64,000 nucleotides of DNA. Origin: a virus. A program made the translations under genes and the position numbers. Each line of letters begins with the position of its first letter. The stretch's first letter is position 1. Under the pieces are notes generated by a model that did no database searches, was not told the origin of the DNA, and was given only the letters and a program-made list of their open reading frames with translations. Positions 2,128 to 64,000 of this stretch are shown here, one piece after another. Location of the stretch: positions 136,745 to 200,744 of IMG/VR virus record IMGVR_UViG_3300024983_000001; one strand, written 5' to 3'.

Positions 2128-2243
2128 GCGAGAGTGATGGAATGGTATACATAGGAGACTTTTTCAAGGATCTGCGAAGAGCGGGTTCTTCTTAAAATCT
2201 CCCGGCTTCGGCTATAGGGGTTCGAGTCCCCTCTCTCGCACCA
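2128..2243 (+). tRNA. tRNA-Leu(TAA) interrupted by 32-nt insertion in anticodon loop
   Basis: GCGAGAG/CTCTCGC acceptor, GGAGA/TCTCC stem, CT[32 nt]TAAAA loop, type II variable arm, ACCA. Confidence 0.8.
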
Positions 2244-39860: not shown

Positions 39861-40020
39861 AATATTGGTTGACATTTATAAATAGTTACTATATACTTTT
39901 AATAACAGTTGAGCAATCAACACGAATTTAAAGTTTTAAAAATATTGGTTGACATTTATAAATAAACCATATATAATTAATGTAACAATTGAGCAATGTG
40001 CTCGCAAACGAATTTAGGAT
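39860..40020 (+). promoter_or_regulatory. tandem sigma70 promoters of the tRNA array
   Basis: AAAATATTGGTTGACATTTATAAATA twice, with TATACT / TATAAT; homologous to 63423-63500. Confidence 0.8.
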
Positions 40021-40027
40021 TATTAAG

Positions 40028-40135
40028 ATGACTACATTTACAACATTTTTTGCACCAGAACATACACCTGCAACCACATGGTTTGCAGCGGAGCCTATGT
40101 GTGCCTTTTTAATTGGTGGTGGATCTAGTAATTAA
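40028..40135 (+). CDS. putative attenuator leader peptide MTTFTTFFAPEHTPATTWFAAEPMCAFLIGGGSSN
   Basis: 35-codon ORF after AGGA RBS, between promoter and terminator; read by hand. Confidence 0.75.
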   Translation: MTTFTTFFAPEHTPATTWFAAEPMCAFLIGGGSSN

Positions 40136-40154: not shown

Positions 40155-40186
40155 AAAAAGGCTTCCGTAAAAAGGGAGCCTTTTTT
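40155..40186 (+). terminator. attenuator terminator upstream of tRNA array
   Basis: AAAAAGGCTTCC-GTAAAAA-GGGAGCCTTTTTT; 5' arm also pairs with 40103-40114. Confidence 0.85.
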
Positions 40187-40206
40187 ATTGTCTAGTGTTT
40201 TTAGGT

Positions 40207-40278
40207 GTGTCATGATTGTGAGGGTTAGCAACTTTCCTTGTGACGGAAATAGAATGGGTTCGAGTCCCATATGGCACC
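40207..40278 (+). tRNA. tRNA-His(GTG), atypical, no CCA
   Basis: GTGTCAT/ATGGCAC, TTTCC-TTGTGAC-GGAAA, C73. Confidence 0.7.
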
Positions 40279-40297
40279 CCTAAAAGTGTTAGACGAT

Positions 40298-40372
40298 GGC
40301 GGTTATAGCTTAGTGGTAAAGTCCTGGATTGTGATTCCAGTCACGAGAGTTCAATTCTCTCTAACCGCCCCA
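40298..40372 (+). tRNA. tRNA-His(GTG)
   Basis: G-1:C73, CTGGA-TTGTGAT-TCCAG, CCA. Confidence 0.95.
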
Positions 40373-40387
40373 AAGTTTTTGTTGTAT

Positions 40388-40400
40388 TGATCTTTAACAA
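40388..40400 (+). promoter_or_regulatory. boxA-like Nus antitermination site
   Basis: TGATCTTTAACAA vs rrn boxA TGCTCTTTAACAA. Confidence 0.65.
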
Positions 40401-40443
40401 TTTGGATGTTGTTTTGTTTTATTGTCGACATTGTGTCATTTGT

Positions 40444-40515
40444 CGGTATGTGGGTCAAAGGTTGATCACTTCGTTTGGGGCGAAGACGATGCTGGTTCGA
40501 GTCCAGCCATACCGA
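40444..40515 (+). tRNA. tRNA-Pro(TGG)
   Basis: CGGTATG/CATACCG, CTTCG-TTTGGGG-CGAAG; no CCA. Confidence 0.9.
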
Positions 40516-40540
40516 CAAATGACATAGTGTTGATAAATGT

Positions 40541-40625
40541 TACCTGTTCGCATAGCGGCGATTGCATCGGTCTCCAAAACCGACGATGAAAATCCACGGG
40601 GGTTCGAGTCCCTCACAGGTAGCCA
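40541..40625 (+). tRNA. tRNA-Trp(CCA), expanded variable loop
   Basis: TACCTGT/ACAGGTA, TCGGT-CTCCAAA-ACCGA, GCCA. Confidence 0.88.
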
Positions 40626-40645
40626 AACAACGTAGAATATATTGA

Positions 40646-40718
40646 CAGGGTGTGGTGCAATCTGGTAGCATAGCTGGTCTGGAGCCAGGCGATTACAGTT
40701 CAAATCTGTACATCCTGA
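40646..40718 (+). tRNA. tRNA-Pro(TGG), C33 variant
   Basis: CAGGGTG/CATCCTG, loop TCTGGAG; no CCA. Confidence 0.8.
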
Positions 40719-40737
40719 CAATATATTTTACATTAAT

Positions 40738-40813
40738 CTCCCTTTGGTGTTTAACAGTAGCATAGCGGTTTTGGAAACCGGCGGCGCAGGTGCAAATCCT
40801 GCAGGGGTGACCA
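40738..40813 (+). tRNA. tRNA-Pro(TGG)
   Basis: loop TTTGGAA, T loop TGCAAAT, ACCA. Confidence 0.8.
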
Positions 40814-40924
40814 TTATTACTATACATTGCTTGTGGTAGTTTAAGTCGGGTGCAACCGTACATACGCCCATTCGTATGTGACAACCTTAAACGGTAGTGT
40901 GTAGTGATAATGGAAAGTTTTATT

Positions 40925-40999
40925 GGGGGCAGTAGTGGGCTACGGAGATGCCTTGCAAGTATCTTGTCTAGAAGGGTTCGATTCCCTCGGCCTCCACCA
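40925..40999 (+). tRNA. tRNA-Ala(TGC), minimal D arm
   Basis: G3:U70, GATGC-CTTGCAA-GTATC, ACCA. Confidence 0.8.
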
Positions 41000-41004
41000 A
41001 ATTT

Positions 41005-41090
41005 GTTGTGTAAACGTTGACTTGCAAGCAACGGAGTTGGTATAGCTTTGTGACACAGAGTAGAAGGTTCGAATCCTTAAACACAACTTA
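41005..41090 (+). pseudogene. degenerate tRNA-Val(GAC)-like
   Basis: GTTGTGT/ACACAAC, GTGACAC loop, GGTTCGAATCC; abnormal D arm, no CCA. Confidence 0.45.
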
Positions 41091-41098
41091 TTTTCAAT

Positions 41099-41174
41099 AT
41101 ACCTCTGGCGTAAGTGGTCTGCGCGCTTGTTTGAAGCACAAGAGGACACAGTTCGATTCTGTGGGGGTATACCA
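41099..41174 (+). tRNA. tRNA-Phe(GAA)
   Basis: CTTGT-TTGAAGC-ACAAG, ACCA. Confidence 0.9.
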
Positions 41175-41185
41175 ATTTTAAAGTT

Positions 41186-41255
41186 TTGTGATAGTATAAA
41201 CCTAATAGCACCCACCGTTGAGGCGGGAGATCTCAGAATTGAACCTGAGTCACAA
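41186..41255 (+). pseudogene. degenerate tRNA-like element (Gln TTG?)
   Basis: TTGTGA/TCACAA stem, CTCAG/CTGAG stem with non-canonical T loop. Confidence 0.35.
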
Positions 41256-41341
41256 TGTTCCACTAAGCCTCGTCTGACAACGGGCTGTTTTGGATGAGGT
41301 CCTGTTAATTATTGATTGTGTCAGCAGTTAAGATTGACAGA

Positions 41342-41412
41342 TTGGTTATAGCAAATTGGAAATGCGCTTCGCCACCCAGCGAGAGGTCAGGGTTCGATTC
41401 CCTGTAACTAGA
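41342..41412 (+). pseudogene. degenerate tRNA (Gly-like, 6-nt anticodon loop)
   Basis: TTGGTTA/TAACTAG, TTCGC-CACCCA-GCGAG, canonical T arm. Confidence 0.5.
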
Positions 41413-41470
41413 TGACCAACAAAAGAGTATTTGATGAGTATTCTTTTATTGGTTTTGATGTAAATTTAAT

Positions 41471-41546
41471 GGGCTGCGATTGAGCTGGGGTTCTTGGCTG
41501 CTTTGCAAGCAGTTATCGTAGGGTTCGATTCCCTAGCGGTCCACCA
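41471..41546 (+). tRNA. tRNA-Ala(TGC)
   Basis: G3:U70, GCTGC-TTTGCAA-GCAGT, ACCA. Confidence 0.88.
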
Positions 41547-41597
41547 AAATATCGCCATATATAGTAAGTGGCTATTCCGCCGCCTAGGAGAAATATT

Positions 41598-41786
41598 ATG
41601 GATTTAATTAGCTTAGTAATCGTATTGGTGGTGGTAGGTGTATTATTGTGGATGGTCAACACATACATTCCGATGGATGCAAAAATTAAACAAATTCTGA
41701 ACATTGTTGTTGTAATTGTTGTTGTTCTTTGGTTACTGAAGGTGTTTGGACTTATTGGTGCCCTATCAGGCATTCACGTAGGTTAG
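41598..41786 (+). CDS. Thivi_2564-family small membrane protein
   Basis: LIVLVVVGVLLW.VNTYIPMD.KIK.ILN.VVVI.VVLWLL. Confidence 0.85.
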   Translation: MDLISLVIVLVVVGVLLWMVNTYIPMDAKIKQILNIVVVIVVVLWLLKVFGLIGALSGIHVG

Positions 41787-41821
41787 TAACAAGCAACCCA
41801 CAGAAATCGTGGGTTAATCAT

Positions 41822-41896
41822 ACTCTCATCGACTAGCGGTCAGGTCGCGACATTCTCAATGTTGAAACATCGGTTCGAATCCGATTGGGAGTTCCA
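41822..41896 (+). tRNA. tRNA-Glu(CTC)
   Basis: CGACA-TTCTCAA-TGTTG, CCA. Confidence 0.92.
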
Positions 41897-41904
41897 AATT
41901 TAAT

Positions 41905-41980
41905 GCCCCTGAAACCTTTAATGGATGAGGTCCTGTCTTGTAAGCAGGAGAAGTCGGCTCGATTCCGGACTGGGGCACCA
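41905..41980 (+). tRNA. tRNA-Thr(TGT)
   Basis: CCTGT-CTTGTAA-GCAGG, ACCA. Confidence 0.9.
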
Positions 41981-41986
41981 GTTAAT

Positions 41987-42062
41987 GCCGGTATAGCTCA
42001 ATGGTAGAGCTGTTCCGTTGTAGGGAACAGGTTGACAGTTCGATTCTAGTCTGCCGGCTCCA
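41987..42062 (+). tRNA. tRNA-Thr(TGT)
   Basis: GTTCC-GTTGTAG-GGAAC, CCA. Confidence 0.88.
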
Positions 42063-42115
42063 GTTTAATTCGTTGTGTTGACTTTATTATCTCAAACTGT
42101 TATACTGTGTATAAT

Positions 42116-42898
42116 ATGGGAGTGTTGTGTAATATGGAAAAACGAACAGTTGTGTGTTGTGTAGGGTGTAACCACGAATTTGGTTCGGCAGCCTTTAGCC
42201 AACACCACCCAGAATCAGTAAGTTGTAAAAAACTCCAAGCTGATAATATGGTTCCTGATAATTTAGTGTGTACATTTTGTGAAAAGCAGATGGTAAACAA
42301 AAGTAGTTATAAAAACCATTCACAGAGATGTAAAGAAAATCCACACCGTGTTGTCCAACGAGGGATGGCAGGAAAAATCCCTTGGATTAAGGGTAAGTGT
42401 AAAGACAACTGTGATATTTTGGCTAAAACAGCTCTCGAAAATTCAATTAAATTAAAAGGAAAAATTGGCCGTAAGTGGACGCAAGAAGAGAAAAATAAAT
42501 TATCAGCTCATGCAAGAAGCCATGGTTATGGTGGGGTTAAGCAATCTCAGAAAACCTTATATAAAGGTGTTCTGTTAGAATCATCATATGAAGTAGCTGT
42601 TGCAATGTCGTTAGATGCATATTTCGTTGAGTGGGAGAAGCCTGGTAGGTTTAATTATATCGATTGTTACGGTAAAAATAGAACCTATCGGCCTGATTTG
42701 TATTTACCCAAATACGATATTTACCTGGATCCCAAAAATGACTTTTTGATCAACAATATTAATCCTACCCTCAAATTTAAAGATGTTGATAAAATACAGT
42801 GGGTTTGTGAACAAAATGATATAACGGTATTGATTTTGAATAAAAATCAATTAAGTTGGAGTGATATTAAAGCCTTATTAGTTCATCAAGTAGAATAA
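42116..42898 (+). CDS. putative PD-(D/E)xK homing endonuclease with zinc fingers
   Basis: ESSYE...YRPDLYLPKYDIYLDPK; NUMOD-like WTQEEKNKLS; inserted in tRNA array. Confidence 0.75.
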   Translation: MGVLCNMEKRTVVCCVGCNHEFGSAAFSQHHPESVSCKKLQADNMVPDNLVCTFCEKQMVNKSSYKNHSQRCKENPHRVVQRGMAGKIPWIKGKCKDNCDILAKTALENSIKLKGKIGRKWTQEEKNKLSAHARSHGYGGVKQSQKTLYKGVLLESSYEVAVAMSLDAYFVEWEKPGRFNYIDCYGKNRTYRPDLYLPKYDIYLDPKNDFLINNINPTLKFKDVDKIQWVCEQNDITVLILNKNQLSWSDIKALLVHQVE

Positions 42899-42946
42899 TT
42901 GTTTCGTACTCAATAGAAGATCGTGCAAATCGGTCATAAGGCTCCA
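42872..42946 (+). tRNA. tRNA-Thr(CGT), overlapping endonuclease 3' end
   Basis: GCCTTAT/ATAAGGC, loop TTCGTAC, T loop TGCAAAT, CCA. Confidence 0.8.
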
Positions 42947-42949
42947 TAT

Positions 42950-43021
42950 GTGAACTTAGTGTAGTGATGCACAACCCCGCTTGAGGGAGAGGACACGGTT
43001 AAATTCCGTGAGTTCACACCA
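42950..43021 (+). tRNA. tRNA-like element, anticodon undetermined
   Basis: GTGAACT/AGTTCAC acceptor and CCA; poorly paired anticodon stem. Confidence 0.55.
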
Positions 43022-43027
43022 AACAAT

Positions 43028-43101
43028 CTGTTCTTAGTGTAGTGATGCATTACTCCCATTTGGGGGAGAAGGACACGGTTAAATTCCGTGAGAACAGGCC
43101 A
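43028..43101 (+). tRNA. tRNA-like element, 6-nt anticodon loop
   Basis: CTGTTCT/AGAACAG, CTCCC-ATTTGG-GGGAG; D and T arms identical to 42950. Confidence 0.55.
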
Positions 43102-43109
43102 AATTTAAT

Positions 43110-43185
43110 GCCGCTTAAACTAATCTGGTGAAAGTGCAAGCCTGAAAAGCTTGAAAGGTTGGATCGTAACCAACAGGCGGCACCA
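43110..43185 (+). tRNA. tRNA-Phe(GAA)
   Basis: CAAGC-CTGAAAA-GCTTG, ACCA. Confidence 0.9.
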
Positions 43186-43196
43186 GTTTTTAATAT

Positions 43197-43272
43197 GTCT
43201 CATTCGTCTAAAGGTAAGGACGTCACTCTTTCAAGGTGAAGATGTTCGGTTCAAGTCCGACATGAGACTCCA
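43197..43272 (+). tRNA. tRNA-Glu(TTC)
   Basis: TCACT-CTTTCAA-GGTGA, CCA. Confidence 0.93.
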
Positions 43273-43283
43273 GTTTTAAATAT

Positions 43284-43358
43284 ACACCTGTAGATTAGTG
43301 GCTAGATCGCTTGGTTTTCACCCAAGAGAAGACGGATCGTAACCGTTCAGGTGTACCA
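43284..43358 (+). tRNA. tRNA-Glu(TTC)
   Basis: CTTGG-TTTTCAC-CCAAG, ACCA. Confidence 0.9.
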
Positions 43359-43365
43359 TTACAAT

Positions 43366-43444
43366 GGGCTTACGGCAGGTTGGATCTGAAGAGAACGTCG
43401 CGCGCCTCTTTTAAGGTGGGTTCGAATCCCACGGTAGCCCGCCA
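43366..43444 (+). tRNA. tRNA-like element with 12-nt anticodon loop
   Basis: GGGCT/AGCCC acceptor, AAGAG-AACGTCGCGCGC-CTCTT, GTGGG-TTCGAAT-CCCAC, GCCA. Confidence 0.55.
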
Positions 43445-43450
43445 TTTTAT

Positions 43451-43525
43451 ATTCCGTTAGACTTCTGGTGAGGTCAGTAGGCTTTCAACCTACGTAGAGG
43501 GGATCGTAACCCCTACGGAATACCA
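43451..43525 (+). tRNA. tRNA-Glu(TTC)
   Basis: GTAGG-CTTTCAA-CCTAC, ACCA. Confidence 0.9.
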
Positions 43526-45350: not shown

Positions 45351-45405
45351 TGGTTGACTTTTAAAACTGTTTAATATATAATTTATGGATAGTATGAAAT
45401 TTAGC

Positions 45406-45481
45406 GCCCAGTTAGCTCAGCGGTAGTAGCAACTGCCTTGTAAGCAGTAGGTCGTCTGTTCGATTCAGACACTGGGCACCA
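45406..45481 (+). tRNA. tRNA-Thr(TGT)
   Basis: ACTGC-CTTGTAA-GCAGT, ACCA. Confidence 0.95.
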
Positions 45482-45534: not shown

Positions 45535-45589
45535 TTAAAATTTAATATGTTGTTGACTTTATCGAAGCTACAATATATAATAGTTAAAT

Positions 45590-46540
45590 GTTTGAAATTC
45601 TCCAACTATTAGTTGGCACCGAAGTAGATAGGTGAATTTGAATCTGCTTAGTATAAGGGTCTAATGCAACGTCAGTTGTACCTTATTAAAAGCAAAAAGT
45701 TTTGGGGCATGACCCTGATAATCTTCCGTAAGGTTGAAAAAGCGAGGACGCCTACGCACTCGCGCCAGCAATGGTCAATTCATGCAAGCCCGACCCACCT
45801 CGAGAGAGGCTGATCGTTGCCAACAGCGGTCATATGGGGGAAGTTAGAGATGTGGAAAGAATGGGTGTTTACAAGCCTGAATCGAAAGAGGATGGGAACT
45901 TGTGCACGTAGAGAGTAACAGGTTGTGCTGACCTCACATCTACACAAACTAACCATCCCAAAGGTGTAAAGGGTAGTGTAATGGTCCGAACCCGCAAGTA
46001 AGGGCTGTTATGCAGGTTGATGGGGGTGTGGTGTCTCGCAAGGGATGTCATAATTCCTGAAAACTGGTTGAGTAATCGGCAGATGAAAGACATGAGGAGT
46101 GTGGTATTTTGATGTCCAAAAGATATTGAATCCACAGGAAGCGCACTTCTTGGTAGGTACAAAAGGTTAGGGTTAAAAGCCCATATAAATTTGGATTATA
46201 TTACTTAAAAACGCAAAGTCGTTTCCAGCGTTGTACTAAAGTGGCTTAATCCTCTAGTCGCGAGACAATAGAGGCGTCCGAAACTCGCAAGGTCGAAGAT
46301 GTTGAATGAAAGTTGCACGGTGGCCCGCAAGCCTTCATAGTTCGCAAGACTGACGGTATACAGAAATTCGAGTAATACAACGTGATGAGTGAACCGCCCC
46401 ACTCTAAAAAAGGCAGTCATGTTAACAGACGGTAGTGTGCGCAAGCAGCTATTGTGGATAAGAGTAGAACCGTGGGTGTCGCAGCCTATACGGATAATGA
46501 CTCGAAGGTGTTAATATATAAAGTATAATCTCAGCTTTAT
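45590..46540 (+). ncRNA. GOLLD RNA
   Basis: ~950 nt non-coding, own promoter (45553/45576), many GCAA/GAAA tetraloop hairpins, 3' blocks ACAACGTGATGAGT..CCGCC..ACTCTAAAAAAGGCAG, GGATAAGAGTAGAA, TAATCTCAGC recalled from GOLLD; flanked by tRNAs; 5' end approximate. Confidence 0.8.
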
Positions 46541-63262: not shown

Positions 63263-63280
63263 CGTATAGTATTAAAAATA

Positions 63281-63409
63281 AAGACACATACAGCAATTAA
63301 AAAATTATAGGAAGTCGCTGGTAGTTATGGTGACAAGGGATGTTGATCGTATTCCGAGGCGTAAAAACCGTACGATTGGTGTGCTCCGAATCTCTCGGGC
63401 GGTGTCTTG
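63281..63409 (+). ncRNA. AGACAC..ACAGCAA...GTGTCTTG element, copy 2 (skipping-rope-like)
   Basis: own promoter at 63243; same frame as 45483 with a larger internal domain. Confidence 0.5.
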
Positions 63410-63509
63410 AAAATTTTATTTTGAAAAATGGTTGACTTTTATAAATAAGTCATATATAATTAATGTAACAATTGAGCAACGTGCTCGAAACGAATTTAAG
63501 GAAAAAGAA

Positions 63510-63605
63510 ATGTTCACAATTACAACCCAGATTATTAATCGCCAGATGAATATCGTCGTAGATCGTCAAGATTGCGAGGGGACGGGTTTTTGTGTGAATT
63601 TCTAA
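63510..63605 (+). CDS. putative attenuator leader peptide MFTITTQIINRQMNIVVDRQDCEGTGFCVNF
   Basis: 31-codon ORF after AAGGA RBS behind a promoter homologous to 39940-40020; read by hand. Confidence 0.7.
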   Translation: MFTITTQIINRQMNIVVDRQDCEGTGFCVNF

Positions 63606-63630
63606 AGTTCTAAAAAGAAATAAACCAAAC

Positions 63631-63659
63631 AAACCCAGTCCCAAAAGGCTGGGTTTTTT
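63631..63659 (+). terminator. attenuator terminator
   Basis: AAACCCAGTCCCAAAAGGCTGGGTTTTTT; 5' arm also pairs with 63579-63589. Confidence 0.8.
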
Positions 63660-63688
63660 GTTGTGCATAGATTTAAAAAGTAGTTGAT

Positions 63689-63701
63689 TGTTCTTTAAAA
63701 A
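63689..63701 (+). promoter_or_regulatory. boxA-like site
   Basis: TGTTCTTTAAAAA just after the terminator. Confidence 0.55.
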
Positions 63702-63826
63702 TACGGTATATTAAGTAAACCTTTTTGCTTAAGGTTATTTGAAAACATTGTAAATGACTATCCAACGTGGAAGTTGATCTAATTATCAACCGTGCATAGT
63801 AGCACACAACCACAAAGGAGAAAATT

Positions 63827-64000
63827 ATGAAGCAATATTTTTTAGGTAACTGGTCGGACAAAGAGGATGTAGCAGAGGATTTTAACATTGATGTTACTGA
63901 ACTTAATGGAGCGAAAATTCTGTTGGCTTGGTATGGTTATGGTGATTATGATGGTTCAGCATTCGTGTTGTTCCAAAAAGGAACCAAATTGTACGAGGTT
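63827..64000 (+). CDS. hypothetical protein (partial, runs off window)
   Basis: AAGGAG RBS, open frame to window end. Confidence 0.7.
   Translation, partial: MKQYFLGNWSDKEDVAEDFNIDVTELNGAKILLAWYGYGDYDGSAFVLFQKGTKLYEV

Follow-up and report, generated by a model that had tools for sequence, protein, structure and literature searches.

Candidate leader-peptide attenuators with amino-acid-matched leaders ahead of tRNA arrays in an uncultivated phage

Leader-peptide attenuators are found in the amino-acid operons of enterobacteria (trpL, hisL, leuL, pheL), and some of them are multivalent, as in ilvGMEDA (Leu/Val/Ile) and thr (Thr/Ile). A gene of the translation apparatus can also be placed under leader-peptide attenuation, as in pheST of E. 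coli with its pheM leader, where the product is a synthetase and one amino acid is sensed. T-box riboswitches, which bind uncharged tRNA directly and require no translation, read tRNA status through the choice between a terminator and an antiterminator upstream of translation-related genes. The tRNA genes themselves are otherwise thought to be regulated at their promoters, by stringent and growth-rate control, and the reason why large phages carry dozens of them is debated, the proposals being a match to codon usage, a replacement for host tRNAs that are degraded, and an escape from defences that cleave tRNA. Full-text literature searches found no description of leader-peptide attenuation of tRNA genes. 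A Phe-rich leader before a tRNA-Phe gene of E. coli was considered as a precedent and rejected, as pheV in K-12 has no leader.

The window analyzed here is a stretch of 64,000 nucleotides corresponding to bases 136745-200744 of the IMG/VR record IMGVR_UViG_3300024983_000001, a 257,054-bp record of an uncultivated phage with a CheckV completeness of 78% and a GC content of 41%. The phage has T4-type replication genes, including those for the topoisomerase II large subunit and an NAD-dependent ligase; its closest cultured phages (Sinorhizobium, Agrobacterium and Xanthomonas phages) have a topoisomerase II protein identity of ~35%, and the focal region gave no match to cultured phages with blastn. 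Its DNA is present in bioreactor and wastewater metagenomes, and a near-identical copy (L070) was found in a different metagenome assembly. More than 50 tRNA genes were detected by ARAGORN and Rfam combined, the majority of them in a few plus-strand arrays. Outside the window, at genome 15875-16226 on the minus strand, ARAGORN also identified a permuted, two-piece tmRNA with the tag ANDSHFDMALAA. This gene gives a hint of the host, as tmRNAs of the permuted form are characteristic of alpha-proteobacteria, cyanobacteria and some beta-proteobacteria.

The unit under study, here named unit C, has the following parts, in window coordinates unless the genome is named.

63432..63460, plus strand: sigma-70-type promoter (TTGACT, 17-nt spacer, TATAAT) with 11/12 consensus positions
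63472..63488, plus strand: 5'-proximal hairpin with a 7-bp stem and a 3-nt loop, seen in minimum-energy folds and as conserved columns, and common to the three units of this genome
63498..63502, plus strand: Shine-Dalgarno sequence AAGGA, 7 nt before the leader ATG and at the same position in the sister units
63510..63605, plus strand: leader ORF of 31 codons and a TAA stop, ranking 4th among the genome's 1417 short ORFs for amino-acid bias to a single set
63519..63572, plus strand: regulatory zone, codons 4-21 of the leader
63579..63597, plus strand: upstream arm of the antiterminator (arm 2), within leader codons 24-30
63626..63642, plus strand: arm 3, comprising the terminator 5' arm and 5 nt upstream of it, which can pair with arm 2 or with the terminator 3' arm
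63631..63662, plus strand: intrinsic terminator with a 10-bp stem (63631-63656), a 6-nt loop and a T-run
63684..63712, plus strand: weak promoter-like site TTGATT-17-TATATT with 9/12 consensus positions, overlapping the boxA-like motif
63689..63701, plus strand: boxA-like site, TGTTCTTTAAAAA
63828..64000, plus strand: 119-aa ORF (5' part), which ends at genome 200930 and is the first gene after the attenuator
64235-66894 (genome 200979-203638), plus strand: tRNA array with Val(TAC), Ile(GAT) x2, Gln(TTG), Asp(GTC) x2, Met(CAT) and Asn(GTT)
Genome 200571-203638, plus strand: gene order of the unit, with the 119-aa ORF, Val, Ile x2, Gln, an HNH endonuclease gene, Asp x2, a second endonuclease-like ORF, Met and Asn

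Most of these elements had been named in the original prediction, which was made from the letters of the window only, and they were recovered here. The promoter/leader stretch that it described as a repeat, 63432-63505, is nearly identical to 39949-40022; the leader sequence was confirmed, together with its tally for codons 2-21 (Ile x4, Thr x3, Gln x3, Asn x2, Arg x2, Val x2, Asp x2, Met and Phe); the terminator is located at 63631-63656 with the T-run after it; the boxA-like site is present at 63689..63701; and the antiterminator pairing it had drawn, 63579-63589 with 63631-63642, emerged as the most stable pairing of the leader with the terminator 5' arm.

In unit C, a promoter precedes a short ORF that has a ribosome-binding site, the leader is matched to the array, and a terminator and a computed antiterminator that excludes it are present; it is proposed here that 63432-63701 is probably a ribosome-mediated attenuator of the trp/ilv type before a tRNA array, by which the transcription of a tRNA set would be controlled by demand through feedback on decoding capacity. 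In the proposed mechanism, the strong sigma-70-type promoter would start a transcript with the 31-codon ORF, with Ile, Gln, Asn, Met, Val or Asp specified by most of codons 4-21; tRNAs for these amino acids are located behind the terminator. A shortage of aminoacyl-tRNA for any one of them would stall the ribosome in the zone and leave arm 2 (63579-63597) free to pair with the emerging 5' arm of the terminator, so that no terminator would form and RNA polymerase would read into the boxA-like site and on through the 119-aa ORF to the tRNA genes of the array (Val, Ile, Ile, Gln, Asp, Asp, Met, Asn). With fast decoding, the ribosome would come to lie over arm 2 (codons 22-31), the terminator would fold, and transcription would stop at ~63660. 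The net effect would be a negative feedback in which each tRNA set is made on demand.

As in the ilvGMEDA and thr type, the unit combines a constitutive promoter, a Shine-Dalgarno sequence, a codon-enriched short ORF and a mutually exclusive antiterminator and terminator, the upstream arm is placed where a translating ribosome would cover it, and one leader would sense several amino acids. Unlike in that type, the phage units would regulate tRNAs and not biosynthetic enzymes, their leaders cover 6-8 amino acids, many of them with one or two codons, they have no consistent 1:2 hairpin so that an untranslated leader should read through, and a boxA-like site comes after the terminator; they are also phage-encoded, forming three paralogous modules for all 20 amino acids. 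The likeness to pheST/pheM consists of a leader-peptide attenuation that would feed back on the charged tRNA for the same codons, whereas the product of the phage unit is the tRNA itself. The principle shared with T-box riboswitches is the reading of tRNA status by terminator/antiterminator choice; however, the sensor of the phage would be a translated ORF. No match to the T-box (Rfam RF00230) or to any other cis-regulatory Rfam family was obtained at E<=0.01 in 39000-64000, where the Rfam matches at that threshold were tRNAs, GOLLD and one sub-threshold match to a tmRNA model at 40925-40999, which ARAGORN calls a tRNA-Ala. Finally, as in rrn-type boxA/Nus antitermination, a TGYTCTTTAAMAA-like motif is present at the start of a long untranslated RNA operon, but in the phage this putative motif stands behind an attenuator in tRNA operons.

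The unit C promoter is identical in the three copies of the genome, and a 25-nt core of it is conserved in relatives; the transcription start is predicted near 63467. The 17-nt promoter spacer (TTTATAAATAAGTCATA type; e.g., window 63438-63454) is nearly invariant in 11 units of four phages, despite an identity of 57% in the one protein compared, which suggests a further binding site or a special polymerase requirement. The 5'-proximal hairpin that follows may stabilize the 5' end and is missing from the units of some relatives. Upstream of the promoter, the stretch 63278-63428 folded no better than shuffled sequences (z=-0.3) when considered as a structured RNA.

Full copies of the promoter and 5' leader occur exactly three times in the 257-kb genome (units A, B and C), the copy of unit A at genome 132244-132320, each having a short ORF, an intrinsic terminator, a boxA-like motif and an array of tRNA genes downstream. 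A truncated tandem copy of the promoter is also present at window 39869, ahead of unit B. The parts of unit B and the array of unit A are the following.

39949..39977, plus strand: promoter of unit B
40028..40135, plus strand: leader ORF of unit B, 35 codons, with T, F, A, P, E, H and W only at codons 2-23
40158..40188, plus strand: terminator of unit B, whose 5' side alternatively pairs with 40103-40114 (duplex of -15.1 kcal/mol, p=0.003)
40207..43525, plus strand: array of unit B, with His x2, Pro, Trp, Pro, Ala, Phe, Ala, Glu, Thr, Thr, Phe and Glu x3, plus two odd tRNA-like genes
40389..40404, plus strand: boxA-like motif of unit B, with two His tRNAs inserted between the terminator and the motif
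Array of unit A: Gly, Cys (Rfam only), Gly, Tyr, Lys x2, then a run of Leu and Ser tRNAs

The tRNA-Arg(TCT) gene at genome 214261 was examined as the possible site of a fourth unit; it directly follows a protein gene, and no such unit is present there. At window 45354-45481, a promoter of the same family (TTGACT-17-TATAAT) is located directly before a second tRNA-Thr(TGT), with neither leader nor terminator, indicating that some tRNAs of the phage are outside attenuator control.

For the sequence past position 64000, the original prediction expected an array with Ile, Gln, Asn, Arg, Val, Asp, Thr and Met; ARAGORN and Rfam identified tRNAs for six of the eight (Ile, Gln, Asn, Val, Asp and Met), with Arg and Thr not represented. 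It also anticipated a third unit rich in K/L/S/Y/G/C, which exists as unit A, 4.5 kb upstream of the window, with the leader MFTLKSKSYCSKLLGGLS. Its proposal of a modular system, with a separate sensor peptide for each tRNA operon, is supported by the fact that both predictions came true and that the architecture recurs in three related phages. In unit C, tRNA-Val starts 49 nt past the stop of the 119-aa ORF and the array stops where a minus-strand gene starts. The 119-aa ORF matches phrog_21421 and phrog_8792, and its homologues in other phages are found within or adjoining tRNA arrays.

The amino acids of each array are concentrated in its own leader. In codons 4-22, residues of the own array account for 15/15 in unit A, 19/19 in unit B and 14/19 in unit C, with 0-2 residues when the same codons are scored against the other two arrays; with the amino-acid frequencies of the long ORFs of the phage as background, the binomial p values are 6.6e-8, 2.7e-10 and 1.9e-4, respectively. 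The 14 matches of unit C are Ile, Gln, Asn, Met, Val or Asp, and the five remaining codons (Arg x2, Thr x2 and Cys) have no tRNA in the array. Leu, Lys, Ser and Tyr do not occur in this leader, and Cys, Glu and Gly are found in its tail, at codons 22-26. Arg(ACG) tRNA is absent from the whole genome, in which Arg is served only by tRNA(TCT), located elsewhere and without a leader. Every amino acid of an array is sampled in its own leader, and the three leaders rank 1st, 2nd and 4th among the 1417 short ORFs for bias to one of the three sets. Combined, the three regulatory zones use all 20 amino acids, and the arrays split 19 of them with no overlap. The metagenome contigs compared yielded a single variant: one low-depth contig (run X11) has a substitution at window 63531 (A>G), changing leader codon 8 from Ile to Val, both of which have tRNAs in the unit C array; this may be a sequencing error.

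With synonymous codons taken into account, the leaders matched the isoacceptors, by the anticodons of the arrays, no more closely than their amino-acid sequence would predict (p=0.17-0.26), and the claim is therefore restricted to the amino-acid level. Many amino acids appear only once or twice per leader, implying a low sensitivity to partial shortage. The lack of a synonymous-codon choice singling out the anticodons of the phage itself would also be expected if the same switch responded to amino-acid starvation of the host or to the general translation status, and not to tRNA abundance, with the tRNA coupling acting as a general brake or accelerator; leader-peptide attenuators such as those of trp, his and ilv sense aminoacyl-tRNA, so that uncharged tRNA resulting from starvation would also stall the ribosome. 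This possibility is considered unlikely, given that a general sensor needs neither three leaders that partition the amino acids in the same way as the arrays, nor a change of leader when a tRNA moves between the arrays of relatives.

The alternative pairing that demand-controlled attenuation by tRNA supply would require was analyzed by folding. The best duplex of unit C, 63579-63597 with 63626-63640, has -10.6 kcal/mol compared with -6.9 +/- 1.9 for dinucleotide shuffles (p=0.04), and the whole leader transcript folds better than shuffled sequences (z=-3.5). In all 11 units (three here and eight in relatives), the 3' segment of the leader pairs with the terminator 5' arm, at -10.6 to -22.1 kcal/mol, the duplex exceeding dinucleotide shuffles at p<=0.04 in 10 of the 11, and a terminator is located between the leader and the regulated genes. 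Defining the zone in which arm 2 remains free by a ribosome footprint of -15 to +13 nt from the A-site, 146/181 codons within the zone belong to the own set, compared with 46/116 elsewhere in the ORFs (Fisher p=1e-12).

The effect of ribosome position was modeled in a kinetic window, with the transcript ended at the terminator loop and without the 3' arm. In unit C, the computed probability that the 5' arm is paired with leader RNA was 0.9 when the ribosome stalled at codons 1-19, falling to 0.4 at codon 21 and to <=0.2 at codons 22-29, and masking arm 2 released the terminator 5' arm. This step in sequestration was seen in 8/11 units, and with no ribosome the 5' arm was sequestered in 9/11. 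An equilibrium scan of ribosome positions with the full terminator was discarded, since the terminator dominated at most positions in units A and B and the profile of unit C was noisy; with the terminator favored at equilibrium, the decision must be co-transcriptional, that is, kinetic. A trp-like 1:2 hairpin, as an anti-antiterminator or pause structure, was no better than shuffles in 10/11 units, and for lack of a consistent one an untranslated leader is predicted to read through, unlike in trp. A ribosome at the stop codon masks only part of arm 2 in unit C, and in three units of relatives arm 2 ends 22-34 nt before the stop, so the geometric fit is weaker there.

Searching with the 25-nt promoter core located relatives of the units in three further phages. 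These include four units in G001 (a 179-kb record), whose homologue of the 119-aa ORF is 57% identical (one protein compared), three units in G006 (a 56-kb fragment) and one unit in L072 (a 1.5-kb metagenome contig). The eight additional units share the promoter core; in all of them the leader has 31-34 codons and a terminator is present, and 7/8 have a boxA-like motif. The groupings of tRNAs differ from those of the present phage and the leaders track the groupings: the leader matches the array in 7/7 units with readable arrays, the Val/Asn/Lys unit of G001 having a leader with five codons for Asn and two to three each for Val and Lys, and the Trp/Pro/Ala/Tyr/Leu unit of L072 one rich in exactly L, A, Y, P and W. 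Between homologous units, tRNA presence and leader codon counts change in the same direction in 43 cases and in the opposite direction in 2, with 13 ties, the pairs not being independent of each other. The G001 unit C leader ends in TAG, and the three leaders of the present phage end in TAA. A tRNA with a CUA anticodon (labeled Pyl by ARAGORN), which would be an amber suppressor, is encoded at genome 59521-59596 (minus strand, outside the window) and also in G001 (L033:9669-9740).

The orthologues of the focal unit have two to four Arg tRNAs and 5-6 Arg codons in the leader, compared with two Arg codons here, and among them Asn and Met tRNAs and zone codons are found only in the present unit C. 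The two unmatched Arg codons may thus be left over from an ancestral array with Arg tRNAs. The terminator stems of three orthologues, including those of G001 and G006, have compensatory pair changes; in a column-wise analysis of antiterminator covariation in these three orthologues, only the terminator columns were interpretable, because bulges shift the registers among the orthologues. An exact search for the conserved 5' leader in IMG/VR gave only chance matches within coding regions, and a scan for a short ORF, a terminator and tRNAs in the examined loci of distant phages with a homologue of the 119-aa ORF (L010, L014-L016) found no matched leaders.

The sum of log10 p for the leader-array match over ten units is -56.6. 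A composition likeness of chance or non-regulatory origin, with the short ORFs encoding small functional peptides or the terminators serving as simple insulators, is considered very improbable with a probability of ~1e-57 for the match over these units, and also because the match is confined to a zone defined by RNA structure. Nothing specific favors it; leaders of one type share some sequence, but they have diverged strongly while keeping their set membership, as in unit A of the present phage and unit A of G001.

The boxA-like motif was found behind the terminator in 10/11 units from the four phages, with a gap of 11-43 nt between terminator and motif in nine of them, and of the four plus-strand matches to the motif core in the genome, three are within the three units. 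These observations suggest the loading of a Nus-type antitermination complex for transcription of the long untranslated arrays. The overlapping promoter-like site at 63684-63712 could permit some transcription independent of the attenuator. If the array of unit C were transcribed mainly from this site, the attenuator would be largely bypassed and the leader would be a decaying relic of an Arg-containing ancestral unit. Consistent with this, the TTGATT-17-TATATT site is located behind the terminator, the leader-array match and the antiterminator of unit C are the weakest of the three, and Arg codons persist without Arg tRNAs. However, with only 9/12 consensus positions the site occurs at close to shuffle frequency and coincides with the conserved boxA-like motif, the leader has gained Asn and Met codons matching tRNAs that only this array has, and the unit retains an intact ORF, arm-2 pairing and terminator, so that a bypass of this kind appears improbable, even more so than a response to host starvation.

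Beyond the focal unit, attenuation in response to tRNA supply allows a broader proposal, offered here tentatively and held to be rather less probable than its opposite: that codon-matched leader attenuators are a general, undescribed form of phage regulation of tRNA genes, which in the present phage would constitute a three-channel sensor of all 20 amino acids, each channel switching on only the limiting set. The shortage could come from anticodon nucleases of the host, other tRNA-depleting defences or the degradation of host tRNA by the phage itself, and the arrays would be an inducible counter-measure and not a constitutive supplement for codon usage. If true, the phage would measure tRNA shortage and respond set by set, the sequence of a leader would predict which depletion induces which array, and classical attenuation would be extended to tRNA genes. 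Such leaders might also be used as small, naturally occurring reporters of how much of a specific aminoacyl-tRNA is available, and the units would give a rule for annotating the boundaries of phage tRNA operons.

Other features were observed within and around the arrays. HNH or endonuclease-like ORFs, which are probably homing endonucleases, are located among the tRNA genes of arrays B (window 42107-42898) and C (genome 201790-202239 and 202579-203415). The two odd tRNA-like genes of array B (window 41342-41412 and 43028-43101) have irregular anticodon loops, with two-base anticodons (cc and tt) in ARAGORN, and the one at 41342-41412 has 38.7 bits with the Rfam tRNA model. The genes for tRNA-Leu (TAA) and (TAG), at window 2128-2243 and genome 135370-135485, each have a 32-nt insertion in the anticodon loop, as detected in the intron mode of ARAGORN, with Rfam tRNA matches of 42 bits. 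Between tRNA-Met and the unit A promoter, genome 132000-132230 (L005:4001-4231) is a GC-rich, apparently structured stretch of 230 nt with a terminator-like hairpin at its end and no Rfam match at E<=0.01. Finally, a GOLLD RNA (Rfam RF02032, 215.8 bits, E=4e-60) is located at window 46094-46537, flanked by tRNA-Thr and tRNA-Pro, with a consensus promoter of its own at 45554-45582.
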